From Escherichia phage JM17, in the sequence record PP400779: a DNA stretch of 64,000 nucleotides; one strand, given 5' to 3'. Within the stretch, counting starts at the first letter, position 1. Each line of letters begins with the position of its first letter. Below are positions 1,658-50,408 of the stretch, one piece after another. The notes under the pieces are model-generated. The model did not search any database. It was given only the letters and a program-made list of their open reading frames with translations, and had not been told where the DNA came from. The position numbers and the translations under genes are program-made.

Positions 1658-2967
1658 CATTTGATGATTTGACTGAAGGCCAGAAAAACGCCTTCAACGT
1701 TGTTATGAACGCTATTAAAGAAAAGAAACATCACGTAACTATTAATGGGCCTGCTGGTACAGGTAAAACAACCCTTACTAGATTCATCGTTGAAGCCCTT
1801 ATTTCTTCCGGAGAATCAGGTATTATTTTAGCAGCCCCTACACATGCTGCTAAAAAGGTTCTAAGCAAACTTGCTGGTCAAGAAGCATCGACTATTCATA
1901 GCATTCTTAAAATCAACCCAACTACATACGAAGAAAATGTATTGTTTGAACAGAAAAAGGTTCCCGACTTAGCCTTGTGTCGTGTACTGTTATTTGATGA
2001 AGCGTCAATGTGCGACCGTTCTCTGTTTAAAATAATGTTAGCTAGTATCCCTAAATGGTGCACAGTAATTGGAATCGGCGACCGATGCCAGATTCGTCCG
2101 GTAGACCCAGGCGAATCAACTGCGTATCTAAGTCCTTTCTTCACTCACAAAGACTTCGTGCAATGCAACCTTACAGAAGTTAAACGTAGCAATGCACCAA
2201 TTATTGATGTTGCGACTGACATTCGTAATGGCAAATGGATTTACGATAAAGTAGTTGACGGGCATGGTGTTCATGGATATACAGACCTTAAATCGTATAT
2301 GACGAACTATTTTAACGTCGTTAAAACTCCTGAAGACCTTTTTGAAAATCGAATGATGGCATTCACAAATAAGTCGGTGGACAAGTTAAATTCAATTATT
2401 CGCCGAAAACTTCTTGAAACAGAAAAACCATTTATTAAAGACGAAGTCATTGTTCTACAAGAGCCATTTACTAAGACATATAAGCTAGATGGTAAAAATA
2501 TGACCGAAATGCTTTTCAATAACGGGCAATTCGTTCGTATTCGAGATGCTGTAGAAACGTCTACATTCGTTAAAGCACGTGGTGTTTCAGGCGAATATAT
2601 GATACGATACTGGAATCTTACAGTAGAAACATATGGGGATGATGAAGAATACATCCGCGAAGATATAAAGGTTATTTCTTCTGAAGAAGAGCTTTATAAA
2701 TTCAATTTGTTTTTGGCTAAGACCGCAGAAACATACAAATTTTGGAATAAAGGTGGTAAAGCTCCGTGGAGCGAATTCTGGGATGCTAAACGTATGTTCA
2801 CTAAGGTGAAGGCACTACCGGTATCAACCTTCCATAAGGCCCAGGGTATGTCTGTTGACACGGCCTTTGTTTATACACCGTGTATCCATTATGCTGATTC
2901 AGAATTAGCTAAACAGTTATTGTATGTCGGCACGACTCGTGGTCGGTTTGACGTCCATTTTATTTGA
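1654..2967 (+). CDS. dda: Dda DNA helicase (SF1B)
   Basis: 437 aa; N-terminus MTFDDLTEGQKNAF and Walker A GPAGTGKTT match T4 Dda almost residue for residue. Confidence 0.95.
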   Translation: MTFDDLTEGQKNAFNVVMNAIKEKKHHVTINGPAGTGKTTLTRFIVEALISSGESGIILAAPTHAAKKVLSKLAGQEASTIHSILKINPTTYEENVLFEQKKVPDLALCRVLLFDEASMCDRSLFKIMLASIPKWCTVIGIGDRCQIRPVDPGESTAYLSPFFTHKDFVQCNLTEVKRSNAPIIDVATDIRNGKWIYDKVVDGHGVHGYTDLKSYMTNYFNVVKTPEDLFENRMMAFTNKSVDKLNSIIRRKLLETEKPFIKDEVIVLQEPFTKTYKLDGKNMTEMLFNNGQFVRIRDAVETSTFVKARGVSGEYMIRYWNLTVETYGDDEEYIREDIKVISSEEELYKFNLFLAKTAETYKFWNKGGKAPWSEFWDAKRMFTKVKALPVSTFHKAQGMSVDTAFVYTPCIHYADSELAKQLLYVGTTRGRFDVHFI

Positions 2968-2976
2968 GAGAAAATT

Positions 2977-3654
2977 ATGAGCACTGATGTTATTATAGAT
3001 TTTGAAACATTCGGCAATACATCAAAAGCGGCTGTTATTGACCTTGCGGTTATTGCATATAATTCCGACCCTGAAGTTGTTGAATCATTTGAAGAACTTG
3101 TTCAACGAGGTAAGCGAATTAAATTTAATTTAGCTTCTCAGAAAGGGAAGCGAGTTTTCGCTAAATCCACTATGAAATGGTGGAAAGAACAATCGGCTGA
3201 AGCGCGTAAAAACCTGGCTCCGTCTGAAGACGATGTCACTACGCTTGAAGGCATTAAAATCTTTTTAGATTATTGTCGAGCTAATAAAGTTGACCAATGG
3301 AAATCACAGATGTGGTGCCGTGGTATGAGCTTTGACTTCCCGATCTTGGTCGATTTGATTCGTGACCTCTATCGTGATGAAGGTGTTCTTGAACCAGATA
3401 TTGATACTGATAAATTAGAACCTGTTAAATTCTGGGCTCAACGTGATATTCGTACGGCAATCGAAGCTTACTCGTTGACACGAGGATTAAGTATGTGTCC
3501 ATTACCGATGGGTACGCTAAAAGGATTCGTTGCCCATGATAGTATTCATGATTGTGCTAAAGATATTTTGATGTTAAAATATGCTCAGCGTTATGCGCTT
3601 GGCCTTGAAGATGTCCCTGAGAATCCTGACCCGTTAAGTGTAAAACAGCGATAA
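2977..3654 (+). CDS. dexA: exonuclease A (DexA)
   Basis: 225 aa; N-terminus MSTDVIIDFETFGN and synteny next to dda. Confidence 0.88.
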   Translation: MSTDVIIDFETFGNTSKAAVIDLAVIAYNSDPEVVESFEELVQRGKRIKFNLASQKGKRVFAKSTMKWWKEQSAEARKNLAPSEDDVTTLEGIKIFLDYCRANKVDQWKSQMWCRGMSFDFPILVDLIRDLYRDEGVLEPDIDTDKLEPVKFWAQRDIRTAIEAYSLTRGLSMCPLPMGTLKGFVAHDSIHDCAKDILMLKYAQRYALGLEDVPENPDPLSVKQR

Positions 3655-3659
3655 AACCA

Positions 3660-3689
3660 GTTTACAACCAAGGATGGTTGGAGTATAAT
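3660..3689 (+). promoter_or_regulatory. T4-type early promoter (GTTTAC -35, TATAAT -10)
   Basis: gtttac at 3660-3665 and tataat at 3684-3689; the ATG at 3678 lies inside the promoter, so the downstream gene probably starts at 3720. Confidence 0.5.
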
Positions 3690-3719
3690 GAATCTATCTT
3701 AAACAAAGAGAGAAAAAAT

Positions 3720-4184
3720 ATGATTAATATTGGTGAAATTAAACGTGTATCGACAGCGTCTCGTTCTAAAGCTGCAGGAAAGCTGGTTGAAGTAGTAGGA
3801 CTTCGTACTAATGGCATGGGCCGTATTAAAGAAGTTAAAGTTCGAATCATTCCTAGTTCTGGAAAAACTGAAACTCAGTTCGCCTATGTAAGTCCTAAAT
3901 TCTTGGAAACTCGTGTACGTGTCCAATTTGCTTCAAGCGATATCGTTGAGCCTACTACACAGTTCAAATGGGCCCTTTGCAAAGGCGTTGAATTTATAAC
4001 CGATAAAGAATTTGATTACATCGACGAATACGGTTATCCAAGCAAAACTGATACTATGTGCGGCTTCATCAGCGACCAATGGGTTGAAGATGGTAAAAAG
4101 CTATACAATATTGTATTCTTAGGTGACTTCCGAGTTGTTGAAGAATCTGAAATCACTCGCTATGTGTCTCCTCGTAAAGCTTAA
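3720..4184 (+). CDS. hypothetical protein, tandem paralog A (dexA.1/dexA.2 position)
   Basis: ORF after the promoter; shares ASRSK.AGKLVEV, FKW.LC and GFISD.WVEDG.KLYNIVF blocks with the next ORF. Confidence 0.6.
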   Translation: MINIGEIKRVSTASRSKAAGKLVEVVGLRTNGMGRIKEVKVRIIPSSGKTETQFAYVSPKFLETRVRVQFASSDIVEPTTQFKWALCKGVEFITDKEFDYIDEYGYPSKTDTMCGFISDQWVEDGKKLYNIVFLGDFRVVEESEITRYVSPRKA

Positions 4185-4193
4185 GGAATTATT

Positions 4194-4613
4194 ATGAATA
4201 TTGCAAATCTCTCTATTGGTGATTATGTACACGTATCGGATGCTTCTCGCTCTAAAGTTGCTGGGAAGTTGGTTGAAGTTCTTTCTGTGAGTGATCCGGT
4301 TTTTGGACGTAACGAAGTTAAAGTTCGTGACTCCGATGGTAACATTGGTTACGTTAAAAGCCAATTCATTGAACCAGAAGAAAAAGCGTTCAAATGGGGA
4401 CTATGCAGATCAGTTTCTGTTGAAAAAGACCATGAATTCACTATTGCTGCGGCAACTGATGGAACACCGTGGAAAACTAAGCAAATCGCCGGATTTATTA
4501 GCGACCGTTGGGTAGAAGATGGTGTTAAGCTTTATAACATCGTTTTCGCTGGTCAGTTCATGGTAGTTCCTGAATTCCAAATTAAAAAATATAGCCCAGC
4601 TGCTTTCGCATAA
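4194..4613 (+). CDS. hypothetical protein, tandem paralog B
   Basis: 139-aa ORF, clear paralog of the 3720-4184 product. Confidence 0.6.
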   Translation: MNIANLSIGDYVHVSDASRSKVAGKLVEVLSVSDPVFGRNEVKVRDSDGNIGYVKSQFIEPEEKAFKWGLCRSVSVEKDHEFTIAAATDGTPWKTKQIAGFISDRWVEDGVKLYNIVFAGQFMVVPEFQIKKYSPAAFA

Positions 4614-4617
4614 AATT

Positions 4618-4646
4618 GTTTACTTCTCCTCTGGTTTTGATATTAT
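4618..4646 (+). promoter_or_regulatory. T4-type early promoter (GTTTAC -35, TATTAT -10)
   Basis: gtttac at 4618-4623, tattat at 4641-4646; flanked by an 11-bp perfect inverted repeat (4626-4636 / 4656-4666) whose downstream arm covers the GAGGAG ribosome-binding site. Confidence 0.5.
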
Positions 4647-4672
4647 AACCATATCAACCAGAGGAGAATAAT

Positions 4673-5197
4673 ATGTTAGTTTACCGCGTAGAACGTAGTT
4701 TTTGTACTCAACGTGAATCATTACCAGGAATTGCTATCGAAGACGGTAAAGCCGTCAGAATTTGGGAAACCTCTTGGAATAAAGAACCTCGCTCGCCATA
4801 CGGTTGGTCGGGCACCGACAACTCTGAAGAAACATGGGAGTTCCTTGATAAGCATGGAATACTCTCAGGTAACTTCTACCATCACGGCGACAACTATAAT
4901 GTCCCTAATCGTCCTACAGTAAATGAAGACAAACTCCTTGAACAAAATATCTTAAGATACTATAGAATTGAGCACGCATTTGAATTGAGTGAAGATTGGG
5001 CTCAAGGGTTCTATTTTGGATTTGAAAGTGTTGACGCGGTTTATGCATGGTTTGATGACCAGGTGGATGTTGAACTCTTGAAAGCTAAAGGATACTACAT
5101 CGCGGTCTATGAAGCACCTGATTTCATCCTCGGAAGTTGTCAATTAATGTTTAGACGTTCATTGGCAGAACAAGTTGATTTTATTTTGCTAAAATGA
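4673..5197 (+). CDS. hypothetical protein (motB position by synteny)
   Basis: 174-aa ORF with ribosome-binding site; position matches T4 motB but the sequence could not be verified from memory. Confidence 0.45.
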   Translation: MLVYRVERSFCTQRESLPGIAIEDGKAVRIWETSWNKEPRSPYGWSGTDNSEETWEFLDKHGILSGNFYHHGDNYNVPNRPTVNEDKLLEQNILRYYRIEHAFELSEDWAQGFYFGFESVDAVYAWFDDQVDVELLKAKGYYIAVYEAPDFILGSCQLMFRRSLAEQVDFILLK

Positions 5198-5226
5198 TGT
5201 ACAACAACTATGGTCTATGATACTAT
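5198..5226 (+). promoter_or_regulatory. early promoter candidate (TGTACA -35, TACTAT -10)
   Basis: 17-bp spacer; places the transcription start downstream of the ATG at 5210, favouring the 5255 start. Confidence 0.35.
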
Positions 5227-5254
5227 AGATCTATCAAAACAAGAGGAGAATATT

Positions 5255-5482
5255 ATGAAACGTCAAATCATTAAAAACGTAACTACTGATTCAAACATCG
5301 ATGAGTTTGAAGATGTTCTGTTTAATCCTGATTTAGTTGTTGTACAGAAAAACTGGACCGAATTTTTATGCTACACCGAAGTGGTTTACGTTTACGAAAA
5401 ACTCGGCGATGAAATGCCTATCTATGGTATCTTCCGTGAAATCACTGAAAATGGTACAACTTATTGGAAGGAAACTTACTAA
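5255..5482 (+). CDS. hypothetical protein (75 aa)
   Basis: ATG at 5255 preceded by GGAGAA; in-frame part of the 5210-5482 track ORF. Confidence 0.45.
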
Positions 5483-5892
5483 TGGCTAATAAATTCCGCG
5501 TTAACTCATGGTACCAATTTATAGATAAACGTGCCCAAGAAGAGTTTATTAAAGACCACACTGATAATGGGATTTATGCACGACGTCTTGGCATGGAACC
5601 ATTTAAAGTATTAGATGTTGACCATCTTGGACGTCCTACTAAAATTGTGACATCTGCTGGCACGGTTGGATATGCATCAGGCGGTGATATCCTTGATGAA
5701 AACTTTATCTGGCTTTCCACGAATGAAGCAGAGTTCTTTGACGAAGTTGAAAATCCGTATCAAGCGTCCGAAGAGCAAGATTCTGGTGAACTTGATGAAT
5801 TGTCTGAATTTCCGGCGATGACGATTACTATCGAAAATAACGACCAGGCATGGTCTTTGTATCAAATGTTGAAAGCACATTTTAAGGAATAA
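5482..5892 (+). CDS. hypothetical protein (136 aa; goF position by synteny)
   Basis: ATG overlaps the upstream stop (TAATG coupling); acidic C-terminal region. Confidence 0.5.
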
Positions 5893-5894
5893 TA

Positions 5895-6074
5895 ATGCCG
5901 TTATACGACTATAAATGCCAATCTGAAGATTGTGGACATGAATATGAAAAAATTAAAAGGATTTCTGAACGAGAAAACGATGTTTGCCCTGAATGTCATC
6001 GTCTGTCTACTCGTCGGGTTTCTGCTCCTAAACATGTGAACGGTGGTTTTTACGACTTACTTAAGAAGGGTTAA
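5895..6074 (+). CDS. small zinc-ribbon protein, FmdB-like (59 aa)
   Basis: Not in the ORF track (below 60 aa); translation MPLYDYKCQSEDCGHEYEKI...VCPECH has two Cys pairs in an FmdB-like arrangement; tightly packed between neighbours. Confidence 0.5.
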   Translation: MPLYDYKCQSEDCGHEYEKIKRISERENDVCPECHRLSTRRVSAPKHVNGGFYDLLKKG

Positions 6075-6076
6075 TT

Positions 6077-6502
6077 ATGGCTTTTAAAGGTTTTGAAGTT
6101 GGTAAGAAATATCGTATTATCAAAGGACAGGAAGATAATTTCTTGAGAATTCTTAATACGACTGGTAAACGTCTTAATACTAATCTGCATACTACTTTAT
6201 TGTCCAAAGATTTTATTGTGGAAGAGATGATTGGTTACGGTGTTTCGGTTATTGCTGTAGAAGCCGTAGGCGATTATGGCCGAACTATTCATAGTATGCA
6301 AGGTGATATTCTGCTTTATGGTGCAGAATTTAAATTCTTTGAAGAAGTTCCGGAACCAGATACAGCTGTCGATTTCAAAAAAGGCTCTATAGAATTTGTT
6401 GATGGTTCGGTGATCGTATCAGGCGATGTGGTCATTACAGTTAAAAGTGAACAAGGGCGTTTGGCTGCAATCGATACACTTCAGAAAATTAAATTTAAAT
6501 AA
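6077..6502 (+). CDS. hypothetical protein (141 aa)
   Basis: ORF followed directly by a terminator hairpin. Confidence 0.55.
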   Translation: MAFKGFEVGKKYRIIKGQEDNFLRILNTTGKRLNTNLHTTLLSKDFIVEEMIGYGVSVIAVEAVGDYGRTIHSMQGDILLYGAEFKFFEEVPEPDTAVDFKKGSIEFVDGSVIVSGDVVITVKSEQGRLAAIDTLQKIKFK

Positions 6503-6519
6503 GGGCTTCGGCCCTTTTT
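6503..6519 (+). terminator. intrinsic terminator (GGGC-UUCG-GCCC hairpin plus T5)
   Basis: gggcttcggccc followed by ttttt. Confidence 0.55.
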
Positions 6520-6543
6520 GCTTTAGATTTCGGATGATAGAAT
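6517..6543 (+). promoter_or_regulatory. candidate MotA-dependent middle promoter for gene 39
   Basis: MotA-box-like tttgcttta, 12-bp gap, then tagaat, about 25 bp upstream of the gene 39 start. Confidence 0.4.
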
Positions 6544-6565
6544 ACCTTCATAACGAGGAGACAAC

Positions 6566-8383
6566 ATGATTAAAAATGAAATTAAGGTATTGACAGATGT
6601 AGAACATATTAAGAAACGTAGTGGTATGTATATTGGTTCTTCGGCTAAAGAAGCACATGAGCGTTTTTTGTTTGGTAAATATCAACAAGTTGAATATGTT
6701 CCTGGTCTGGTTAAATTAATCGATGAGATTATTGACAACTCGGTTGATGAAGCTATTCGTACATCATTTAAGTTTGCAAATAAAATTGATGTGCAAATTA
6801 AAAATAATCAAGTTTCGGTGGAAGATAACGGACGCGGTATTCCTCAAGGTTTAGTTACTGACCAAACAGGTGAACAAATTCCTGGTCCTGTAGCGGCCTG
6901 GACTATTCCAAAGGCTGGTGGTAACTTTGGTGATGATTCTGAACGCAAGACTGGTGGTATGAACGGCGTCGGGAGTAGTTTAACTAATATCTTCTCTACG
7001 TTGTTTACAGGCATCACGTCAGATGGCGAAAACGAAATCACTGTTAACTGTTCAAACGGAATGGAAAACAAATCATGGTCTTCTAAGAAATCTAAAGGTA
7101 AAGGCACTAAAGTAATCTTCACTCCTGATTTCTCTTCATTTGAAGAGCATAATTTATCTCAAATTTATTTAGATATTACTTTAGACCGACTTCAAACATT
7201 GGCAGTCGTTTATCCTGATATCAAGTTCACATTTAATGGTAAAAAGGTTGATGGTAATTTTAAACGATTTGCTAAACAATTTGGTGAAGATAACATCATT
7301 CAAGAAAATGATAAAGTCTCTATAGCATTCACAACATCACCAGATGGCTTCCGTCATTTAACTTATGTGAATAACATCCATACTAAAAATGGTGGTCATC
7401 ATGTTGAATGCGTAATGGATGATATCTGCGAACATCTTTTGCCGGGTATTAAAAAGAAATATAAGGGTATTGAAGTCACTAAAGCTCGTGTTAAAGAATG
7501 CCTCACAATGTTGATGTTTATTAGAGACATGAGCAACATGCGTTTTGATTCTCAGACTAAAGAACGTTTAACGTCAACGTATGGTGATATTCGTAATCAT
7601 ATCCAATTAGATGCTAAGAAAATTGCTCAGGCACTTCTTAAAAACGAAGCCTTGATTATGCCTATTGTTGAAGCAGCATTAGCTCGTAAATTGGCAGCAG
7701 AAAAGGCTGCAGAAACTAAAGCAGCTAAAAAGGCAACTAAAGCTAAGGTTCATAAGCATATTAAAGCTAACCAATGTGGTAAAGATGCAGATACGACATT
7801 GTTTTTAACAGAAGGTGATTCGGCAATTGGTTATCTCATTGATGTTCGTGACCGTGAACTACACGGCGGATTCCCATTACGTGGTAAGGTGATGAATAGC
7901 TGGGGTATGTCATATGCTGATATGATGAAGAACAAAGAGCTCTTTGATATCTGTGCTATCACAGGTCTTATTCTTGGTGAAAAGGCAGAGAATACGAACT
8001 ATCGTAATATTGCAATTATGACCGATGCCGATCACGACGGTCTTGGAAGTATTTATCCTGCTTTGCTTGCTTTCTTTAGTAATTGGCCCGAATTGTTTGA
8101 ACAAGGACGTATTCGCTTTGTTAAAACACCTGTAATTATTGCACAAATTGGCAAAACTCAAAAATGGTTTTATACTGTAGCTGAGTATGAAGAAGTTAAA
8201 GATACACTGCCTAAGCATAGTATTCGATACATCAAGGGATTGGGCTCACTTCAGCGGGATGAATATAAAGAAATGATTCAAAACCCTGTGTACGACGTAG
8301 TTAAACTTCCTGAAAATTGGAAAGAACTCTTTGAAATGTTGTTGGGTGATGATTCAGAACTTCGTAAAGAATGGATGTCCTAA
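6566..8383 (+). CDS. 39: DNA topoisomerase II large subunit, unsplit gene 39 form (605 aa)
   Basis: N-terminus MIKNEIKVLTDVEHIKKRSGMYIGS and DNGRGIP ATPase motif match T4 gp39; the single ORF runs through the region that T4 encodes separately as gene 60. Confidence 0.92.
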   Translation: MIKNEIKVLTDVEHIKKRSGMYIGSSAKEAHERFLFGKYQQVEYVPGLVKLIDEIIDNSVDEAIRTSFKFANKIDVQIKNNQVSVEDNGRGIPQGLVTDQTGEQIPGPVAAWTIPKAGGNFGDDSERKTGGMNGVGSSLTNIFSTLFTGITSDGENEITVNCSNGMENKSWSSKKSKGKGTKVIFTPDFSSFEEHNLSQIYLDITLDRLQTLAVVYPDIKFTFNGKKVDGNFKRFAKQFGEDNIIQENDKVSIAFTTSPDGFRHLTYVNNIHTKNGGHHVECVMDDICEHLLPGIKKKYKGIEVTKARVKECLTMLMFIRDMSNMRFDSQTKERLTSTYGDIRNHIQLDAKKIAQALLKNEALIMPIVEAALARKLAAEKAAETKAAKKATKAKVHKHIKANQCGKDADTTLFLTEGDSAIGYLIDVRDRELHGGFPLRGKVMNSWGMSYADMMKNKELFDICAITGLILGEKAENTNYRNIAIMTDADHDGLGSIYPALLAFFSNWPELFEQGRIRFVKTPVIIAQIGKTQKWFYTVAEYEEVKDTLPKHSIRYIKGLGSLQRDEYKEMIQNPVYDVVKLPENWKELFEMLLGDDSELRKEWMS

Positions 8384-8406
8384 GCTCCTTCGGGAGCTTC
8401 ATTTTA
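8383..8406 (+). terminator. intrinsic terminator (UUCG hairpin plus T-run)
   Basis: gctccttcgggagc followed by ttcatttt just after the gene 39 stop. Confidence 0.5.
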
Positions 8407-8425
8407 ATTTTAATAAGGCTTAATT

Positions 8426-9526
8426 ATGAAAGTTATGTTTATCCCATCTCGCGCAGTCCCATTTAACCCAGAACGTGTACAAGGTGGTCTTGAAGCAGTA
8501 CATTTAAATGTGTTGAAATATCTTGTGTCCATCGGTGCTGATATTGATTATATCGGCTTTGATAATGACACGTTTGGTGACTGGAAGGTTAATCATCATC
8601 CTGTTGGTCATCTGACTAAATTCAGTCTAGGTATGAGTTATACTATGGCTCGTAAGATTGTTGAACTAGCCGGCATTAATGAGTACGATTTCGTTGTTAC
8701 AATGGAACCGACCAAACTAACCGTTCAGGCAATTAAAGACGCAGGTCTCTCTAAAGTTCATAAGAATTTTATGGCAACACCATTTGAACCAGTATCTCGT
8801 GGCATTGTTCAAATTTGGGACCAGACTATTCAAATTCGTAAGAATGGTGGTAAGAGTTATGCTCCTACTAAAGCCTTCCGTGAATTTGAACGCAAATATT
8901 GTTATATGACTTCAGGTCTGACTGACAAAATTGATTATGATTATTGGCGAGCAAATCCGTTGTTTGAAGCCGAAGATTATCCGGTTATTTGTTTGAATGA
9001 GAAACCTGAAGTTCTTCCGGCGACGGATCTGATTATTAGTGCACAACGTTATGACACTAAAATGCGTCGTACTGATGTTGCTCTTGAAGCGATTAAAGCA
9101 CTAGGCGAAAATGGTGTAGGATACTGTCCTAGTAAATGGGCACCACCGGCTAAGTATCCTGTTATTATTGATGCTCCACACAGTGAAATCATGGAACGTC
9201 TTAAAACAGCTAAAGCACTTATCAATACGTGTCCTGACACGGGTACGGTAGAGAATAGTTCTATTGAAGCCATCTCTAAAGGTGTCCCTGTGATTCAGTT
9301 AGTTTTTAAGGATTATCCGCACGCGACATTCGAATATGACCCAGATACTGTGCGTGTAGAAATTGATTCCTCTACTCCTAAGAAAGAAGTAGTTGCGCTT
9401 TACACAAAAGCTGTATTAGAATTCACTGACACATACGAAGCTCGAGTTAAACGTGCTGAAGCAGTATGGAAGAAGTATAATCGAGATGCAGTTGTTGCGA
9501 TGTGGGATAAAATCTTCACAGCGTAA
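8426..9526 (+). CDS. putative GT-B-fold glycosyltransferase (366 aa)
   Basis: C-terminal GTVENSSIEAISKGVPVI resembles the GT4-family E-x7-E sugar-donor motif; lies between gene 39 and rIIA. Confidence 0.5.
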   Translation: MKVMFIPSRAVPFNPERVQGGLEAVHLNVLKYLVSIGADIDYIGFDNDTFGDWKVNHHPVGHLTKFSLGMSYTMARKIVELAGINEYDFVVTMEPTKLTVQAIKDAGLSKVHKNFMATPFEPVSRGIVQIWDQTIQIRKNGGKSYAPTKAFREFERKYCYMTSGLTDKIDYDYWRANPLFEAEDYPVICLNEKPEVLPATDLIISAQRYDTKMRRTDVALEAIKALGENGVGYCPSKWAPPAKYPVIIDAPHSEIMERLKTAKALINTCPDTGTVENSSIEAISKGVPVIQLVFKDYPHATFEYDPDTVRVEIDSSTPKKEVVALYTKAVLEFTDTYEARVKRAEAVWKKYNRDAVVAMWDKIFTA

Positions 9527-9831: not shown

Positions 9832-12045
9832 ATGATTATTGAAACGGCTAAAGAAACGATTATTGGTTCTGGTGGTAAAAGCACAGCATTTACTATTCAA
9901 GGCAATAGCAAAGTTTATAAGATTTTGTCTAATGACCTTTATACAAACAAAGAATTGGCTTGTGTACGTGAATTAATCACAAACTGTATCGATGGACAAA
10001 TTCTTAATGGTTGCACTGATAAGTTTATTGTTCAGGCTCCAGGTCGTTTAGACCCACGTTTTGTAGTTCGAGACTTTGGTCCTGGTATGAGTGATTTCAC
10101 CATTCGAGGTAATGACGAAGAGCCAGGAATCTATAACTCATATTTTGCTTCAACTAAAACATCGAGTAACGATTTCATTGGTGGATTCGGACTCGGTTCT
10201 AAAGCTCCACTAGCATATACCGATACGTTTAACCTTACGTCTTATCACAACGGTGAAGTTCGTGGTTACGTAATCTACCAAGATGACACGGGTCCACAAA
10301 TTAAGCCAACCTTTGTAGATAAGATGGGCCCCGATGACCGTACGGGTGTAGAAGTAGTTGTACCGGTTAACCCAGAAGATTTTGAAAAGTTCGCATCTGA
10401 AATTGCATATGTTATGCGTCCTCTAGGTGATATTGCAGAAGTTCGTGGTGTTAAAGATATTAAATACTTCCCTGAATTTGACGATGTATATTTGGCCAAG
10501 GAAGCTCCATGGGGTGAACGCGGTAATATCATGGCTGTTTACGGTGGTATTGTATATCCAATCGGAAGTGTTATTAAAGAACAAACATGGATGATGACGC
10601 GATGCACTACAGCTTATATTAAATTCCCTATGGGTGAACTAGATGTAGCCCCGTCTCGTGAAGCATTGTCATTTGATAAACGTACAGTAGCAAATATCCA
10701 TAAACGTGTTGCAGAAATCGATGCTAAATTGTTCGCTGAAGATTCTAAGAAATGGATTGATTGTAAATACCCACGTCATGTGTTCCGTGAAATTGATTCT
10801 CTTGGCTATACCGCTCGTAAATACATGGAAAAGGCCGGGTCTAATATTGAATCACTGAAATACTCTAAAGAACAACTAACTTATTCCGAGTTGTACAAAC
10901 GTTTTAAAATGGGGCCTGAGTGGTGTAATCTTGGCGTCGTATACGATATCGTTGAATCCCCTCGTCTTCGTCGTATTCGTGAAAGTGGTAGCTCATCAAC
11001 AACCATTTCAATTAATAGCCTGATTGGCATTAACATTAAAAACGTTGAAATTGTTATTGACGACGTTAAGGGACGCGTTCCATTAATGCGAGCTCTTAAT
11101 TCAATTGAAATGTCTAAAGACGAGGTTAAATTAACCGGTAAAGTTCCACGCGGTTTTGGTAAAAGCGTACTATTCGTTGACCCTACAGACGAAGATGCAA
11201 TGAAACTTCTGGAACGCCTTAAAGTTATCTTTGATGGCGACAACATTAACATGTACAAGACTTCAGAGCTTTTACAAATCGTTAAGCCATGGATTGAAGT
11301 CAAGACTCGTTCTAATGGGCCTCGCCCTAAATCACCGAGTGCCCATCGTTTCTTCAAGAACGAAAACGATGTTTGGGTATCGGAAGATCTCTTTATTCCG
11401 GCAAGTGAAGCAGATGAAATCCAAGGTTATGCTATAGTTCGTAATCGTTCTAATGCTGAATGTCTTGACTCAGATAAAGGTTGGTTGAACTATGACTCCA
11501 ATTTCTTGACCCGTATTGCTGATTTGTCAGGTATTAAAGAGTTCACTGTAGTCCGTCCACAGATTGCTAAGAAAGTTCGTAAACTTGGTGAAGTAGAATG
11601 CTTGTTCGAAAAATCAATTAATGACTATATTACGCTAATTGATAAAGTGGATTATGATGAGTATGTATCACCAAGTCGTAGAGCACAGCCTTATTTGAAT
11701 CATATTACTCGTAATGAAGAGCTTAACTTCCTTAGTAAGTATTTTAGCTCTAAGAACAAAGAAATCAGTAAAGATTTTGCAAAACTTTCAACAGTAAATA
11801 ATCGTTGGGGATGGAATCGATTCGCAGGTGCTGATAACAGAGACCTGAACACGAAGTTAGAATTGTGTGCTAAAATTTTCGATAAGCTTAAAGATAATGC
11901 TTACGATAATGATGATAAAATGGTTATTGAATTCGAAACCAATTATCATATTGTGTCAGAATACATGGGACGACGTGGTACTCTTTCCAAAGAACAGGTC
12001 GCTCAAATCGTTAAATTCATGAAGGCCGTGGAAGCGGCCAAATAA
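9832..12045 (+). CDS. rIIA: rIIA protein
   Basis: 737 aa, N-terminus MIIETAKETIIG; size and adjacency to rIIB match T4 rIIA. Confidence 0.9.
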   Translation: MIIETAKETIIGSGGKSTAFTIQGNSKVYKILSNDLYTNKELACVRELITNCIDGQILNGCTDKFIVQAPGRLDPRFVVRDFGPGMSDFTIRGNDEEPGIYNSYFASTKTSSNDFIGGFGLGSKAPLAYTDTFNLTSYHNGEVRGYVIYQDDTGPQIKPTFVDKMGPDDRTGVEVVVPVNPEDFEKFASEIAYVMRPLGDIAEVRGVKDIKYFPEFDDVYLAKEAPWGERGNIMAVYGGIVYPIGSVIKEQTWMMTRCTTAYIKFPMGELDVAPSREALSFDKRTVANIHKRVAEIDAKLFAEDSKKWIDCKYPRHVFREIDSLGYTARKYMEKAGSNIESLKYSKEQLTYSELYKRFKMGPEWCNLGVVYDIVESPRLRRIRESGSSSTTISINSLIGINIKNVEIVIDDVKGRVPLMRALNSIEMSKDEVKLTGKVPRGFGKSVLFVDPTDEDAMKLLERLKVIFDGDNINMYKTSELLQIVKPWIEVKTRSNGPRPKSPSAHRFFKNENDVWVSEDLFIPASEADEIQGYAIVRNRSNAECLDSDKGWLNYDSNFLTRIADLSGIKEFTVVRPQIAKKVRKLGEVECLFEKSINDYITLIDKVDYDEYVSPSRRAQPYLNHITRNEELNFLSKYFSSKNKEISKDFAKLSTVNNRWGWNRFAGADNRDLNTKLELCAKIFDKLKDNAYDNDDKMVIEFETNYHIVSEYMGRRGTLSKEQVAQIVKFMKAVEAAK

Positions 12046-44731: not shown

Positions 44732-45018
44732 TTAAATTAACCGCAGTTGTATTATCTATTGGCATTTTGGCTGGATGTGCCCAGGATGTGCTCTTAAGCC
44801 CTAAAGAAACTTTACATCCGCCATGGCCTGAATCTATTGTTGAATATAACCAGAAATGGCAAGTAAAGGTTATTGATGGTAATCCATGGGTTGGAATGCC
44901 GTTTGAAGACTCTCAAGAATTTCGTATCTGGTTAAACGACGTAAAAAGATATGTACATGACCAGAAGACTATGTTATGTTATTATCGTAGTGGTTTAAAA
45001 GAGGAAAAATGTCAATGA
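44728..45018 (+). CDS. o-spanin (outer-membrane lipoprotein spanin, PseT.2-like)
   Basis: 96 aa; signal peptide with lipobox LAGC; start overlaps the i-spanin stop. Confidence 0.65.
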   Translation: MIKLTAVVLSIGILAGCAQDVLLSPKETLHPPWPESIVEYNQKWQVKVIDGNPWVGMPFEDSQEFRIWLNDVKRYVHDQKTMLCYYRSGLKEEKCQ

Positions 45019-45233
45019 CTAAAGAACAGCATGAATACATTAAAGGGCTTATCTATGAATCTGAAATGGCGGCTATGATTTATGGGCGCCAGATTCAACG
45101 ATTAGAATCTTTGCCTCCGACTAATGACCGCTTATTAGTTCAGTCTCGTGCTAATCTGAAAAATGAATATCAGAACAAGTGGGCAGTTGCGACTAAAGCT
45201 CTTCATGAGTATATTGAATCTTTAGTAAAATAG
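45009..45233 (+). CDS. hypothetical protein (74 aa)
   Basis: ORF overlapping the o-spanin stop. Confidence 0.5.
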   Translation: MSMTKEQHEYIKGLIYESEMAAMIYGRQIQRLESLPPTNDRLLVQSRANLKNEYQNKWAVATKALHEYIESLVK

Positions 45234-45262
45234 TTTACAAACTCTTGGGAGCAGAGTATAAT
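45233..45262 (+). promoter_or_regulatory. T4-type early promoter (GTTTAC -35, TATAAT -10)
   Basis: 18-bp spacer; near-duplicate of the 14598 promoter. Confidence 0.5.
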
Positions 45263-45290
45263 GCTCCTATGGATAATTGAGGAAATCTAA

Positions 45291-45589
45291 ATGAAAACAT
45301 TACTAGAGAATTACATCAAACGGTCTGATGAGTATATTGATATCTGCCGTGGAATGTCACTTGTCAATTATGACAAAGATGCAGCAAAGGCACTAGATGA
45401 AGCAGGTAAAGCTCTTCGTAAAGCTGCTAAAGAAAAAGGGTTGGATTTGCAACAACTCAAAAGTCATATGATTAAATTTATTTCTTCAAACGTTAGAAGT
45501 ACGTCAATTAATAAAAACGTTGCTGAAATTAATAAAGACCGGCGCGAGCATAACATTCGTATTCTTGAAACTTTCTTAGGAATAAAATA

Positions 45590-45590
<1 letters not shown>
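45291..45590 (+). CDS. hypothetical protein (99 aa)
   Basis: ORF downstream of the promoter. Confidence 0.5.
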
Positions 45591-46677
<1,087 letters not shown>

Positions 46678-46848
46678 TGAAATGATTATATGAAGTGATT
46701 GAGGCCATCGAACATCATAAAGAATATTTGTTTGTAGCCTGGCCTTTAGTAAATGGACAGTTCGGTATTGATGTGATGGACTATGAGCGTGAAGAACGTT
46801 TGGACGGCGGTATATTTGATAACGTCGACCAGGCAATTGAATGGTTAA

Positions 46849-47073
46849 ATGAAAACTATGTACGATAAACATCATGAAATCGAAGATGAAGCATACAAAA
46901 TGCTTCGTAAACTAGTGGGACTTAATATGAGTCCTACATTAATCAACAAACTCGCAGGAATTCGTAATGATCTGAATACTCGTTACAAAGGTGAATATCA
47001 TGTAGAGTTTGTTCCTGTAGGTGAACCGACCGAGCGATTTGTTGTTCGAGTTAAAGTAAATACTGTACACTGA
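46849..47073 (+). CDS. hypothetical protein (74 aa)
   Basis: ORF; a small GTG-initiated ORF at about 46695-46868 may precede it. Confidence 0.4.
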   Translation: MKTMYDKHHEIEDEAYKMLRKLVGLNMSPTLINKLAGIRNDLNTRYKGEYHVEFVPVGEPTERFVVRVKVNTVH

Positions 47074-47080
47074 GGTAATT

Positions 47081-47356
47081 ATGTTCCCAACTTATTCTGA
47101 AATTGTAAAGGTAGTCTTCAGTCAGATTATTGCTAATAATATGTTTGAAGTGCTTGATAATGCAGCCGAACTTAGAGTTCATGCTCAACTAACTCATGTA
47201 CTCAATGCTTTGCTCCCAGACCAAGTAGATTCTATTGCTATTACTCTTCTCCCTGGGTCTGCACACGTCATAGTGGTATTTGATCTTGACGGCGATTTAG
47301 TTATCCAATGTGATATCAATTTCGGTACACAAAAAATTGAATGCAAAGCAATTTAA
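47081..47356 (+). CDS. hypothetical protein (91 aa)
   Basis: ORF with ribosome-binding site. Confidence 0.45.
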   Translation: MFPTYSEIVKVVFSQIIANNMFEVLDNAAELRVHAQLTHVLNALLPDQVDSIAITLLPGSAHVIVVFDLDGDLVIQCDINFGTQKIECKAI

Positions 47357-47358
47357 TG

Positions 47359-47388
47359 GTTTACAACATGGTGGAGTTGTGATACTAT
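47359..47388 (+). promoter_or_regulatory. T4-type early promoter (GTTTAC -35, TACTAT -10)
   Basis: 18-bp spacer. Confidence 0.5.
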
Positions 47389-47416
47389 AACTCTACCAAC
47401 AAATGAGGAAATAGAA

Positions 47417-47653
47417 ATGCTAAGTGAAAACCCAATTACAGTACACGAATTTCAGATTAAAGTAAAAGAATTTGCTCAAGCACTCATCAATAAAGTGTCT
47501 GAACGTTTCCAAGATGCAACATTACGAGTTATTCAAGAATCTCCACGTTCTTTTCTCATAATCGTTAATCCTAAAGATGGTGACCAAATTACTAATCTTA
47601 AATTAGGCAGTGATGGTCTTGTTGAAGCAACTCGAGTATATGGAACACTATAA
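47417..47653 (+). CDS. hypothetical protein (78 aa)
   Basis: ORF downstream of the promoter. Confidence 0.45.
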   Translation: MLSENPITVHEFQIKVKEFAQALINKVSERFQDATLRVIQESPRSFLIIVNPKDGDQITNLKLGSDGLVEATRVYGTL

Positions 47654-47773
47654 TGAGAGCTATCTCATTACTATCGAGAATGGTCATAAATCTGAGCACT
47701 ACCAACTTAGCCTGTCTAATCCGGTTAAAGGTATTGTTGAATCAGAATCTGTTTATATCTCCTAAGGATTGTT

Positions 47774-48766
47774 ATGTTACCTGTCGTCGGAAAACTTATT
47801 TCTCCAAAAGAACTGGCTGAGATTATTCCTTTGTCGGAAGCTTACGCATCACAAGTGGCTTCTCATCGCGAACAAGTTAATTCGATTATGAACGGTGAAG
47901 ACCCACGCAAACTTATTGTTGTAGGTCCTTGTTCAATTCATGACCCTATTGCTGCTGTTGAATACGGCAAACGTTTGGCTGAACTTCAAACTCGTCTTCC
48001 TAATGTTCTGTTAGTGATGCGCGTTTATTTTGAAAAGCCTCGAACCACCGTAGGTTGGAAAGGTCTTGTAAATGATCCATATCTTGACGGAAGTTTTGAT
48101 ATGAACCACGGTCTTATAGTTGCACGAACATTGTGTCGTAAACTTCTACGTATGGGACTTCCATTAGCAACTGAAGTATTAGACCCATTCACGATTAAGT
48201 ATCTTTCTGGTATTTTCTCATGGGTTGCTATTGGCGCCCGTACGACTGAAAGCCAGACACATCGTGAAATTGCTTCAGGTCTACCGATGTGCGTAGGCTT
48301 CAAGAACGCAACCAATGGTTCTATTAAAGTAGCTACAGACGCGATGTATAGTGCCGCCTGGCCTCATCGGTATATGGGTATGGACGTCGATGGTACTGTA
48401 GGCATTGTTGAAGCTGAAGGTAATCATAATACGCATATCGTATTGCGTGGCGGGACCAACGGCCCGAACTATCATTCTTCTGATATTCAAGAAGCTTCTA
48501 ACAAAGCAAGGGCAGTAGGTCTGAATCATTATGTAATGGTTGACTGTAGCCATGCAAACGCTGATGGGCATTATAGCAATCAAATTGGTATTGGTAAAAA
48601 TTTAGCAGCTAATGATTTGGTCAAAGGAATTATGATAGAATCATTTCTACATGAAGGAAATCAAAAAATTTCTGATAATATGTCCTATGGCGTTTCCGTT
48701 ACCGATGCGTGCATCAGTTGGGAACAAACTAAAGAGCTGTTAACTTATATTAATAAGGTTCAATAA
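47774..48766 (+). CDS. 3-deoxy-7-phosphoheptulonate (DAHP) synthase, class I (AroG/AroF/AroH-like)
   Basis: 330 aa; VVGPCSIHDP, RVYFEKPRTTVGWKGLVNDP, AIGARTTESQ.HRE.ASGL, DCSHAN and TDACI blocks match E. coli AroG; stop overlaps the cd start. Confidence 0.85.
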   Translation: MLPVVGKLISPKELAEIIPLSEAYASQVASHREQVNSIMNGEDPRKLIVVGPCSIHDPIAAVEYGKRLAELQTRLPNVLLVMRVYFEKPRTTVGWKGLVNDPYLDGSFDMNHGLIVARTLCRKLLRMGLPLATEVLDPFTIKYLSGIFSWVAIGARTTESQTHREIASGLPMCVGFKNATNGSIKVATDAMYSAAWPHRYMGMDVDGTVGIVEAEGNHNTHIVLRGGTNGPNYHSSDIQEASNKARAVGLNHYVMVDCSHANADGHYSNQIGIGKNLAANDLVKGIMIESFLHEGNQKISDNMSYGVSVTDACISWEQTKELLTYINKVQ

Positions 48767-49347
48767 TGAAAGCTAGCACATACCTTCAGATTGCATATCT
48801 GATTTCTCAAGAATCAAAATGTTGTTCATGGAAAGTTGGTGCCGTCATTGAAAAAGATGGACGCATTATCTCTACTGGATATAATGGTTCACCCGCAGGT
48901 GGCGTTAACTGTTGCGAACATGCATCCGAAAATGGTTGGTTGAAGAATAAACCAAGCCCGGTCATCGTTGCTGGGCATAAAGAAGGCACTACGGCATTTG
49001 GACGGGTGGATAATTTTGTTTTGGCTAAAGAACATCGGGCCGCTCATAGTGCATGGTCTGCTAATAACGAAATCCATGCTGAATTGAATGCCATTTTGTT
49101 TGCTGCTCGTAAAGGTAATTCTATTGAAGGTGCTACGTTGTATACGACACTTTCTCCATGTCCTGATTGCACTAAAGCTATTACACAGTCAGGTATTAAA
49201 AAGGTTGTATATGCAGAATTATATGACCGATCTCCTGAAAATTGGGCAGACATTCTTAAACAAGCTGGTATTGAAGTAATTCAGTACTCTCGTAATAATC
49301 TTCGTTCTCTGAATTGGGAACAAATCCGAAACTTTTGTGGTGAATAA
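48766..49347 (+). CDS. cd: dCMP deaminase
   Basis: 193 aa; zinc-binding HAELNAI and PCPDC motifs; matches T4 Cd in size and position. Confidence 0.9.
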   Translation: MKASTYLQIAYLISQESKCCSWKVGAVIEKDGRIISTGYNGSPAGGVNCCEHASENGWLKNKPSPVIVAGHKEGTTAFGRVDNFVLAKEHRAAHSAWSANNEIHAELNAILFAARKGNSIEGATLYTTLSPCPDCTKAITQSGIKKVVYAELYDRSPENWADILKQAGIEVIQYSRNNLRSLNWEQIRNFCGE

Positions 49348-49348
49348 T

Positions 49349-49645
49349 ATGATTTTAACTGAACAAGAAACTATGGTTCTTCGTGAACGTATTAAAACTA
49401 TTCTGTCTGTAGGCGTTCATTGTGTTGTATTTGAAAAGGCTAACGGTGATGTTCGTACGATGTTTGCCTCGCGCGATGAACTTGAAGTCAAATATGAAAA
49501 TAGTAACCCATCAACAGAAGTTCGTTCTGAACCTCGTGAATCAGTTCGAGCATTCGACACCAAGTTAGGCCAGTGGCGTTCTTTCCGCCTTGATAAAGTA
49601 ATTTCGGTTGATGGTACTCCGGTAGAACGTTTGCTTCTTATGTAA
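49349..49645 (+). CDS. hypothetical protein (98 aa)
   Basis: ATG directly after the cd stop; the track ORF uses a GTG at 49337. Confidence 0.45.
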   Translation: MILTEQETMVLRERIKTILSVGVHCVVFEKANGDVRTMFASRDELEVKYENSNPSTEVRSEPRESVRAFDTKLGQWRSFRLDKVISVDGTPVERLLLM

Positions 49646-49702
49646 TATGCTTTACGAATAGTATGGTATTATTAATCTATCGTCAAACAACAAGGAAATA
49701 AG

Positions 49703-50035
49703 ATGTCTGAAGTACAACTCCCAATTCGTGCTGTTGGTGAATATGTCATTCTGGTTTCTGAACCCGCTCAAGCAGGTGATGAAGAAGTTACCGAATCAGG
49801 ACTTGTGATTGGTAAACGTGTTCAAGGTGAAGTTCCTGAACTATGTGTAGTTCATTCTGTAGGTCCTGATGTTCCTGAAGGTTTTGTTGAAGTCGGTGAT
49901 TTGACTCCACTACCAGTTGGACAAATTCGAAATGTTCCACATCCATTTGTGGCTTTGGGTCTTAAACAACCTAAAGAAATTAAACAGAAATTCGTAACAT
50001 GCCACTATAAAGCTATTCCGTGTCTTTATAAGTGA
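49703..50035 (+). CDS. 31: gp31 co-chaperonin (GroES-like)
   Basis: 110 aa; [34 protein letters not shown] near-identical to T4 gp31. Confidence 0.93.
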
Positions 50036-50043
50036 TATAAATA
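50036..50043 (+). promoter_or_regulatory. late promoter TATAAATA upstream of rIII
   Basis: Exact tataaata immediately after the gene 31 stop. Confidence 0.45.
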
Positions 50044-50159
50044 ACTATATGAAGAGAACACTCTTCTAAGCGGTAGCCTACAACTGAGAGACTTGTCGAA
50101 AGAAGGTGAAATTCAGACGAACGTGGCTACTAAATATTATCTCGAATTGAGAATTTAAA

Positions 50160-50408
50160 ATGATTAAACAATTACAACACGCTCTTGAACTGCAACGAAA
50201 CGCATGGAATAACGGTCACGAAAACTACGGCGCGTCAATTGATGTTGAAGCCGAAGCACTGGAAATCCTGCGTTATTTCAAACATCTGAACCCGGTACAG
50301 GCAGCTTTGGCCTCTGAACTGGAAGCAAAAGATGAACTGAAATATGCTAAGCCTTTGGCTTCTGCAGCTCGTAAAGCAGTACGTCATTTTGTTATTACCC
50401 TTAAATAA
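50160..50408 (+). CDS. rIII: rIII lysis-inhibition accessory protein
   Basis: 82 aa; MIKQLQHALELQRNAWNNGHENYGASIDVEAEALEILRYFKHLNP matches T4 RIII. Confidence 0.9.
   Translation: MIKQLQHALELQRNAWNNGHENYGASIDVEAEALEILRYFKHLNPVQAALASELEAKDELKYAKPLASAARKAVRHFVITLK

Follow-up and report, generated by a model that had tools for sequence, protein, structure and literature searches.

The 64,000-nucleotide stretch of Escherichia phage JM17 DNA analyzed here (sequence record PP400779; hereafter, the window) encodes, at 47774..48766 on the + strand, a protein of 330 amino acids that we assign, from profiles, alignment and a structural model, to the type I-alpha (class I) DAHP (3-deoxy-D-arabinoheptulosonate 7-phosphate) synthases. 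The protein belongs to a clade of T4-like phage enzymes from which the allosteric site is, judging from the residues, lost, and the gene is co-distributed with a U32-family gene of the phage DNA-modification cluster. The proposal developed here, to which we give an even chance, is that the deregulated DAHP synthase serves as the entry valve of a prephenate supply for O2-independent 5-hydroxycytosine synthesis.

The presence of the gene is already on record and is not a new sighting. A Danish coliphage survey listed the DAHP synthase of Mosigvirus among auxiliary metabolic genes (AMGs) of unknown function, a DAHP synthase domain is mentioned in the phiC120 paper, and PHROG 5045, which falls in the AMG category, matches the window protein over its full length (residues 1-330, E=6.9e-182). 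Phage records matching the gene number 145 at the DNA level and 212 by tblastn. About 140 of them are near-identical Mosigvirus copies, and in most the gene already bears a name such as phospho-2-dehydro-3-deoxyheptonate aldolase, DAHP synthase or AroF/AroG.

Enzyme identity, feedback site and origin

The first-pass annotation had described the open reading frame (ORF) as a class I DAHP synthase with the catalytic blocks of AroG, AroF and AroH, and all lines of comparison agree. The ORF begins with ATG and is the longest reading of its frame; its translation contains the blocks VGPCSIHDP, EKPRTTVGWKG, VDCSHANA and VTDACISW, and the profile and PDB matches are far beyond chance. Pfam DAHP_synth_1 (PF00793) matches at E=6.6e-75 (251.9 bits against a cut-off of 25.5), and the NCBIfam models TIGR00034 (aroFGH; 427.3 bits against 173.2, full length) and NF009395 (454.7 bits against 343) are likewise exceeded. 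The best PDB match is Escherichia coli AroF (6agm, E=6.8e-105). The AlphaFold2 (AF2) model, with a predicted local distance difference test score (pLDDT) of 90.7 and a predicted template modelling (TM) score (pTM) of 0.91, is a (beta/alpha)8 barrel with an inserted beta6a/6b hairpin (strands 198-203 and 209-214). Foldseek aligns this model at TM 0.93-0.95 to 8e0u, 1kfl and 4hso (E. coli AroG and Neisseria meningitidis DAH7PS).

The first-pass annotation had also called for a careful alignment of the metal- and phosphoenolpyruvate (PEP)-binding residues, and in this alignment none has been lost. The metal ligands C53, H260, E289 and D311 (AroG Cys61, His268, Glu302 and Asp326) are invariant in all 23 phage and all 96 cellular sequences compared. 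The same is true of the residues that bind PEP and erythrose-4-phosphate (E4P), namely R83, K88, R90, T91, G154, A155, R156, K177 and R225, whose AroG counterparts are R92, K97-P-R99-T100, G163-A164-R165, K186 and R234. The protein is almost certainly a catalytically active DAHP synthase, predicted to convert PEP and E4P to DAHP and inorganic phosphate.

The feedback site tells a different story when the 23 sequences of the phage clade are compared with these 96 closest cellular homologues in AroG numbering. Only 48-52 residues precede the metal-binding Cys in the phage clade, whereas 58-95 do so in 95 of the 96 cellular proteins, and the N-terminal arm (AroG D6, D7 and I10; AroF N8 and I11) is missing from the window protein. 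AroG P150 is replaced by Ile in 22 of the 23 phage sequences (Pro in 89 of the 96 cellular ones), Q151 by Lys in 22 (cellular Gln in 95), and D155 by Gly in 22 (cellular Asp in 92). S180 has become Pro and F209 Tyr in all 23 phage sequences, against Ser and Phe, respectively, in 94 of the 96 cellular proteins. The corresponding residues of the window protein are I141, K142, G146, P171 and Y200. The counterparts of AroG D146 and AroF P148 are kept in the phage enzyme, and the window protein scores below the NCBIfam equivalog cut-offs for both AroG (362.8 < 568) and AroH (385.7 < 463).

Carbon entry into the aromatic pathway is controlled by DAHP synthase, which is feedback-inhibited by aromatic amino acids (PMC9529685). 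AroG P150L and S180F are feedback-resistant, Q151 is involved in inhibition by Phe, and the equivalents of Q151, D155 and S180 form part of the lining of the inhibitor site (PMC9529685). With the N-terminal arm gone and these feedback-resistance and inhibitor-site positions substituted, the phage enzymes very probably do not respond to Tyr, Phe or Trp. The earlier statement that feedback inhibition cannot be told from the sequence was too pessimistic in light of these changes.

The phage DAHP synthases are 319-338 amino acids long and share 57-98% identity with the window protein, whereas the nearest cellular proteins are 341-388 amino acids long and share at most 55%. In a neighbour-joining tree (numpy distances), the 25 phage-type sequences form a single clade in every one of 30 bootstraps, and the sister of the phage clade is a group that includes the AroF of E. 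coli and other enterobacteria. The clade probably goes back to a single capture of an AroF-like gene by a forebear of several T4-like genera, with the allosteric site being lost later. Between genera, dN/dS is 0.15-0.2, with dS saturated; inside Mosigvirus, where pairs differ at about 12 positions, dN/dS is uninformative.

Distribution and the proposed prephenate supply

A survey of related phage genomes, as suggested in the first-pass annotation, found the DAHP synthase gene to be widespread in T4-like phages. The window is Mosigvirus DNA: its DAHP synthase gene is identical to that of Escherichia phage FL18 at 99.9% of DNA positions and 100% of protein positions, and the gene is present in more than 90% of Mosigvirus-type records. 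Carriers beyond Mosigvirus are T4-like phages of Klebsiella, Serratia, Proteus, Enterobacter and Edwardsiella. In all five genera viewed, the gene lies between pseT and cd, with 0-2 small ORFs separating it from cd; these are Mosigvirus, a Klebsiella phage, Serratia X20 (Winklervirus), Proteus phiP4-3 (Bragavirus) and Enterobacter Entb_45 (Kanagawavirus). T4 and other Tequatrovirus are absent among the 212 tblastn records. T4 has cd.1 in place of the DAHP synthase and, as had been pointed out from the window sequence, only small cd.x ORFs here (cd.1 to cd.5 between pseT and cd). The pseT-cd slot of Yersinia phiR1-RT also holds small ORFs only and no DAHP synthase. A set of contigs with DAHP synthase genes filed as "Bacteriophage sp." from faeces and as Acinetobacter phage MD-2021a was excluded as a whole; the one faecal contig that was examined (MT837410.1, "Bacteriophage sp.") is a piece of bacterial DNA under a phage label, on which the DAHP synthase is accompanied by aroD, a MarR regulator and an ABC transporter.

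The link to DNA modification begins with a homologue of RB69 gp3, a putative second DNA arabinosyltransferase of 366 amino acids encoded in the window at 8426..9526 (+ strand; 99% identity, no Pfam match), between topoisomerase gp39 (6566-8383) and rIIA (9832-12045). This homology places the phage in the arabinosyl-5-hydroxycytosine group. The remaining genes of the modification cluster are outside the window, among them the U32 gene, which is found at 124248-125411 in FL18. RB69 gp50 is of the U32 family (Pfam Peptidase_U32, 7.4e-11), and the membership of the phage protein in this family rests on Pfam together with a published structural match. When the tblastn records were binned by the first word of the organism name, the U32 and DAHP synthase genes were found, respectively, in 136 and 124 records for Escherichia, 26 and 25 for Klebsiella, 14 and 12 for Shigella, 7 and 7 for Proteus, 7 and 6 for Serratia, 4 and 4 for Enterobacter, and 3 and 3 for Edwardsiella (221 and 212 over all records). 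The DAHP synthase count is thus at or below the U32 count in every host bin. All 16 non-Mosigvirus carriers of the DAHP synthase that were cross-checked, or their sister isolates, also appear in the U32 or chorismate mutase lists, and the losses run one way, with RB69 and Tegunavirus having U32 and no DAHP synthase. In Acinetobacter phage records, tblastn found the arabinose genes and neither U32 nor this DAHP synthase. Acinetobacter hosts differ in oxygen physiology from the hosts of the U32-carrying phages.

A second shikimate-related gene adjoins U32 in many relatives. The Entb_45 cluster runs in the order arabinose-5-phosphate (A5P) isomerase, nucleotidyltransferase/kinase, phosphatase, U32, chorismate mutase and ThyA-like 5-hydroxydeoxycytidine monophosphate (5hodCMP) synthase, the last three ORFs overlapping start to stop (locus 7001-9104). 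The chorismate mutase is of the AroQ type, with 79 amino acids (Pfam CM_2, 2.4e-10), and belongs to PHROG 10027, labelled "unknown function." It occurs in 51 records, with the ThyA-like gene at the match in nearly all of them and U32 in several as well. These records are of phage EcS1 and of phages of Klebsiella, Serratia (phages LC53 and 92A1 among them), Yersinia, Enterobacter, Edwardsiella, Erwinia, Pectobacterium, Shewanella, Providencia, Morganella and Kosakonia. The phage U32 proteins are 82-92% identical between genera, far above the conservation of the DAHP synthase, and 13 Cys residues are invariant in the U32 proteins of four genera, including C343-x4-C348-x3-C352-x2-C355 (RB69 locus 6496-7662). 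The set of genes that could accompany U32 in prephenate supply differs by genus. In Klebsiella phage Marfa (Marfavirus), the ThyA-like gene comes directly after U32 and a chorismate mutase is missing (locus 2504-4421), and Proteus phiP4-3 has three small ORFs without assigned identity in this position (locus 2495-5093).

The proposed mechanism starts from the feedback site. Because the allosteric site has been lost, the phage DAHP synthase would run whatever the levels of Phe, Tyr and Trp, and would push carbon into the host shikimate pathway, probably early in infection, alongside the nucleotide-precursor genes. The chorismate and prephenate supply would thereby be raised for the phage U32 protein, the homologue of RB69 gp50. 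We infer the role of this protein, and with it the destination of the flux, by analogy with cellular members of the family. TrhP, which makes 5-hydroxyuridine (ho5U) in tRNA, and RlhA, which makes 5-hydroxycytidine (ho5C) in rRNA, need prephenate and act without O2; UbiU/V, which act in anaerobic ubiquinone synthesis, use prephenate as the oxygen donor, again without O2, and the authors predicted this chemistry family-wide (PMC6599085, PMC10990095). The phage U32 protein could similarly use prephenate as an oxygen donor or co-substrate for hydroxylation of cytosine at C5 without O2. Such a route would complement the known phage 5hodCMP synthase, which is flavin- and O2-dependent (PMC13326640). 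A second, O2-independent route is suggested by the parallel with TrhO/TrhP and UbiIHF/UbiUV and by the anoxic habitats of the hosts.

The genome contains about 63,000 cytosines (37.7% GC). At one prephenate per hydroxylation, the stoichiometric demand would be large, and hardest to meet where aromatic amino acids abound. This demand would explain why the first step of the pathway is phage-encoded, and why a chorismate mutase is present in many relatives. The full module would belong to T4-like phages of facultative anaerobes: a feedback-blind DAHP synthase and, in many genera, a mini chorismate mutase would supply prephenate to a divergent U32 Fe-S hydroxylase, and this enzyme would form 5-hydroxy-deoxycytidine independently of O2. 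In our estimation, this reading falls slightly short of an even chance. The first-pass annotation had left a choice between redirecting flux into aromatic compounds and supplying a precursor for something else; the comparative evidence, from U32 co-distribution and chorismate mutase adjacency, favours the precursor.

An unrelated phage provides an independent case. Aeromonas phage HJ05, which is not T4-like, has its own DAHP synthase with 38% identity to the window protein, and this enzyme is also altered at P150, Q151, D155, S180 and F209. Three genes away is a homologue of CmoA (TIGR00740, 7.1e-35, short of the equivalog cut-off). CmoA is an enzyme that uses up prephenate, and in Synechococcus phage S-B43 it feeds a cytosine modification; the authors of that work raise the source of prephenate as an open question (PMC12783734). 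The HJ05 stretch is a possible carboxymethyl-type DNA modification cluster with a prephenate supply of its own. Over 6 kb (locus 2645-7904), it contains the CmoA-like gene, two unidentified ORFs, the DAHP synthase and an Acb2/Tad1-like anti-defence protein.

Several observations weigh against the prephenate proposal. RB69 has no DAHP synthase, and even so its DNA carries the full modification when the phage is grown aerobically (PMC13326640), and gp48 plus a kinase is enough for 5-hydroxydeoxycytidine formation in E. coli with O2. Yersinia phiR1-RT has both U32 and chorismate mutase and no DAHP synthase in its pseT-cd slot, so that the DAHP synthase can be no more than an optional booster. The co-distribution of DAHP synthase and U32 may reflect one shared ancestral acquisition rather than function, the two genes are about 100 kb apart in FL18, and feedback insensitivity is deduced from residues. 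No recognisable chorismate mutase is present in Mosigvirus, Marfavirus or Proteus phages. Mosigvirus ORF049c was considered as a cryptic chorismate mutase and rejected: it has no Pfam, NCBIfam or PDB match and no similarity to the Entb_45 enzyme, is confined to Mosigvirus, and is modelled by AF2 as a low-confidence two-helix hairpin. The phage U32 protein itself is only distantly related to its proposed counterparts, with pairwise BLAST against TrhP, RlhA and UbiU not significant and a Pfam score of 42 bits, and it was labelled a "sugar or heterocycle reductase" by the authors of PMC13326640.

A scan of IMG/VR is a further point on this side. The 10-kb flanks of 80 DAHP synthase loci were searched by tblastn for CmoA, U32, TrhP, RlhA, UbiU/V and chorismate mutase. 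The search turned up a single chorismate mutase and not one additional neighbour of the CmoA or U32 type. A general rule that phage DAHP synthases sit beside a prephenate consumer was consequently dropped. Many of the 80 loci are giant-virus contigs of doubtful provenance, and the T4-like U32 cluster, lying about 100 kb from the DAHP synthase, is therefore invisible to a scan of 10-kb flanks. Dozens of giant-virus metagenome-assembled genome (GVMAG) contigs in IMG/VR, of uncertain provenance, have DAHP synthase genes with 40-47% identity to the query. A literature search found no paper tying phage DAHP synthase, chorismate mutase or U32 to 5-hydroxycytosine; the search did not cover two recent pathway papers.

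As the main rival reading, the gene could instead be a generic AMG, with a deregulated DAHP synthase boosting Phe, Tyr and Trp for phage protein synthesis after host shut-off and no link to DNA modification. We consider this unlikely, although several observations speak for it: purifying selection has kept the enzyme intact while its regulation has apparently been lost, PHROGs and the literature both count the gene among the AMGs, DAHP synthase sets carbon entry to the aromatic pathway (PMC9529685), and RB69 and Tegunavirus manage without the gene. However, T4 and its Tequatrovirus relatives share the same protein-synthesis needs and do without a DAHP synthase, all 212 tblastn records coming from other lineages. 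No other aromatic amino-acid gene stands alongside the DAHP synthase, and the sole other shikimate-related phage gene, the chorismate mutase, is embedded between U32 and the 5hodCMP synthase. Aromatic amino acids are supplied by the gut and by rich media, and HJ05 again pairs a DAHP synthase with a prephenate consumer of nucleic-acid chemistry. A different chorismate product is quite improbable as the target, whether folate and para-aminobenzoic acid (pABA) needed by the baseplate and by the enzymes that modify dCMP and dUMP, quinones, or Trp as an adsorption cofactor. All three products derive from chorismate (PMC6599085), and T4-like phages do encode folate-dependent enzymes, with frd and td in the window region by position. 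T4, however, has equal folate needs without the gene, a cofactor is needed in catalytic rather than stoichiometric amounts, and the chorismate mutase of relatives draws chorismate off the pABA, Trp and quinone branches.

A role in arabinose metabolism is very improbable. The protein could act on A5P in the manner of a 3-deoxy-D-manno-octulosonate 8-phosphate (KDO8P) synthase, as raised in the first-pass annotation, or could drain E4P and so pull pentose-phosphate flux toward ribulose-5-phosphate (Ru5P), A5P and nucleotides. In the Mosigvirus arabinosyl-5-hydroxycytosine pathway, Ru5P is converted to A5P, for the arabinose donor, by the phage's own isomerase (PMC13326640). DAHP synthase and A5P isomerase occur together in Mosigvirus, Serratia, Edwardsiella, EcS1 and one Proteus phage, and the DAHP synthase gene is set among nucleotide-precursor genes. 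The distribution of the isomerase nevertheless led us to reject this link, since Klebsiella and Acinetobacter phages show opposite patterns: the DAHP synthase occurs without the isomerase in at least 23 Klebsiella phages, and the isomerase without this DAHP synthase in at least 53 Acinetobacter phages (the RB69-type isomerase was found in 57 Acinetobacter phage records). The KPRTT motif is of the E4P type, all DAHP synthase active-site residues are unchanged, and NCBIfam returns DAHP synthase models only. An E4P drain would, in addition, waste PEP and carbon. Finally, the variability of the pseT-cd interval among T4-like phages and the clean loss from RB69 between two short repeats would fit a passenger that a hyperplastic region can do without and that selection hardly acts on, if at all. 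This is highly improbable for a gene kept in the same slot across genera at only 58-77% identity, with invariant catalytic residues, the low inter-genus dN/dS given above, and a presence in more than 90% of Mosigvirus-type records.

Genomic neighbourhood and absence from RB69

The DAHP synthase gene is preceded by a Shine-Dalgarno sequence, AAGGA, at 47764..47768 (+ strand, from sequence reading), 5 nt before the ATG. Its stop codon, TAA (48764-48766), shares one nucleotide with the cd start codon (48766-48768), so that the junction reads TAATG (48764..48768, + strand, also from sequence reading) rather than showing the ATGA overlap first reported. The downstream gene, cd (48766..49347, + strand), encodes a dCMP deaminase of 193 amino acids (Pfam dCMP_cyt_deam_1, 1.6e-26; 73% identity to T4 cd). 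Coupling of the two genes had been proposed, and in the window they are indeed co-directional and abutting; the arrangement is not conserved, however, as Serratia and Proteus phages have 1-2 ORFs between them. The co-directional upstream neighbour is a cd.2 homologue (DUF7320 by Pfam; 47417..47653, + strand), and pseT, the polynucleotide kinase/phosphatase gene identified by Pfam and synteny at 45778..46677 (+ strand), forms the upstream boundary of the conserved pseT-DAHP synthase-cd slot.

A promoter-like site, TTTACA-17-TACTAT with TG, is found between the cd.3 and cd.2 homologues at 47360..47388 (+ strand; site scan, weak evidence), in the slot where the T4 annotation has a mapped early promoter. 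Site counts in a promoter and terminator scan of the region were not above shuffled expectation, and the positional match to T4 alone was used. No + strand terminator-like site was found by the scan in 45000-50200. Early co-expression of the DAHP synthase with cd is likely because of the promoter-like site in the T4 early-promoter slot and the lack of a + strand terminator-like site in this interval. A 41-amino-acid ORF at 47640-47765 (+ strand), partly overlapping cd.2 at its end, is entered as a hypothetical protein in FL18 and SSE1. An ATG at 47653, in another frame, resembles a vestigial cd start.

RB69 has no DAHP synthase, and its cd.2 abuts cd. The 1113-bp segment of the window that RB69 is missing is flanked by a 19-nt imperfect direct repeat whose copies are identical at 16 of 19 positions. 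The left copy (ATAATGAGAGCTATCTCAT; 47650..47668, + strand), at the left edge of the segment, resembles the cd start, and the right copy (ATAATGAAAGCTAGCACAT; 48763..48781, + strand) is the true cd start; the RB69 junction has a single copy (RB69 locus 4700-5060). Because the slot is common to five genera, deletion in RB69 is the simplest reading of the gene's absence, and RB69 would then resemble a natural deletion mutant. Repeats of comparable quality also arise by chance in the region, and the argument for deletion therefore rests on the position of the repeats. The RB69 cd is annotated at 169 amino acids (locus 4243-4752) and diverges from the 193-amino-acid window and T4 proteins past ...ADILK, which is probably a frameshift or sequencing error in an old record.

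Comparison with known systems

If the prephenate proposal is true, it would give a function to an AMG so far listed as "function unknown," and a role to the U32 "peptidase" and the mini chorismate mutase of the DNA-modification cluster. It would explain 5-hydroxycytosine DNA in gut phages where the O2- and flavin-dependent synthase cannot work, and would add viral DNA to the RNA and quinone targets of the recently discovered chemistry in which prephenate is the oxygen donor. No earlier virus would have been shown to rewire the shikimate pathway for an organic oxygen donor in DNA hypermodification, and no earlier U32 enzyme to act on DNA precursors. It could also expose a vulnerability, or a tuning knob, in therapeutic Mosigvirus and Klebsiella phages facing restriction in anoxic niches. 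The phage clade is a natural collection of type I-alpha DAHP synthases whose allosteric sites are altered, and it may be of use in engineering the production of aromatic compounds.

The closest characterized enzyme, the Tyr-sensitive E. coli AroF (6agm), is 51% identical to the phage enzyme and shares its fold with the beta6a/6b hairpin, its metal, PEP and E4P ligands, and a Gly at the AroF G212 position, in keeping with its place in the sister clade. The phage enzyme differs from AroF in its length (330 amino acids, as compared with 356), in lacking AroF residues 2-10, and in having I, K, G and P at P151, Q152, D156 and S181. Feedback-resistant DAHP synthases have been engineered as AroG P150L, S180F and D146N and as Corynebacterium glutamicum AroF P155L/I. 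The phage enzyme is naturally changed at P150 and S180, and additionally at Q151 and D155; unlike the engineered enzymes, it combines several changes with an N-terminal truncation, and the combination is fixed across a natural clade.

Among phages, the CmoA/CmoX system of S-B43, which makes carboxymethylcytosine, is alike in being a DNA hypermodification that uses prephenate stoichiometrically. It differs in its carboxy-SAM (carboxy-S-adenosylmethionine) chemistry, and the main text of PMC12783734 makes no mention of DAHP or chorismate. The phage U32 protein resembles TrhP, RlhA (ho5C2501) and UbiU/V in placing a U32 protein with conserved Cys residues in a C5-hydroxy-pyrimidine pathway, and it coexists with an O2-dependent enzyme for what would be the same product, as in the pairs TrhO/TrhP and UbiIHF/UbiUV. 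Its Cys pattern, however, is rearranged relative to these proteins, and the substrate proposed for it is a deoxynucleotide or DNA. We know of no cellular prephenate-dependent U32 system that brings its own DAHP synthase. A precedent for viral enzymes at flux-controlling nodes exists in the cyanophage AMGs talC, cp12 and zwf/gnd, which direct host carbon to nucleotide and DNA production. The phage DAHP synthase differs from these in belonging to the shikimate pathway, and in that regulation appears to have been lost by mutation of the allosteric site rather than altered by an added regulator.

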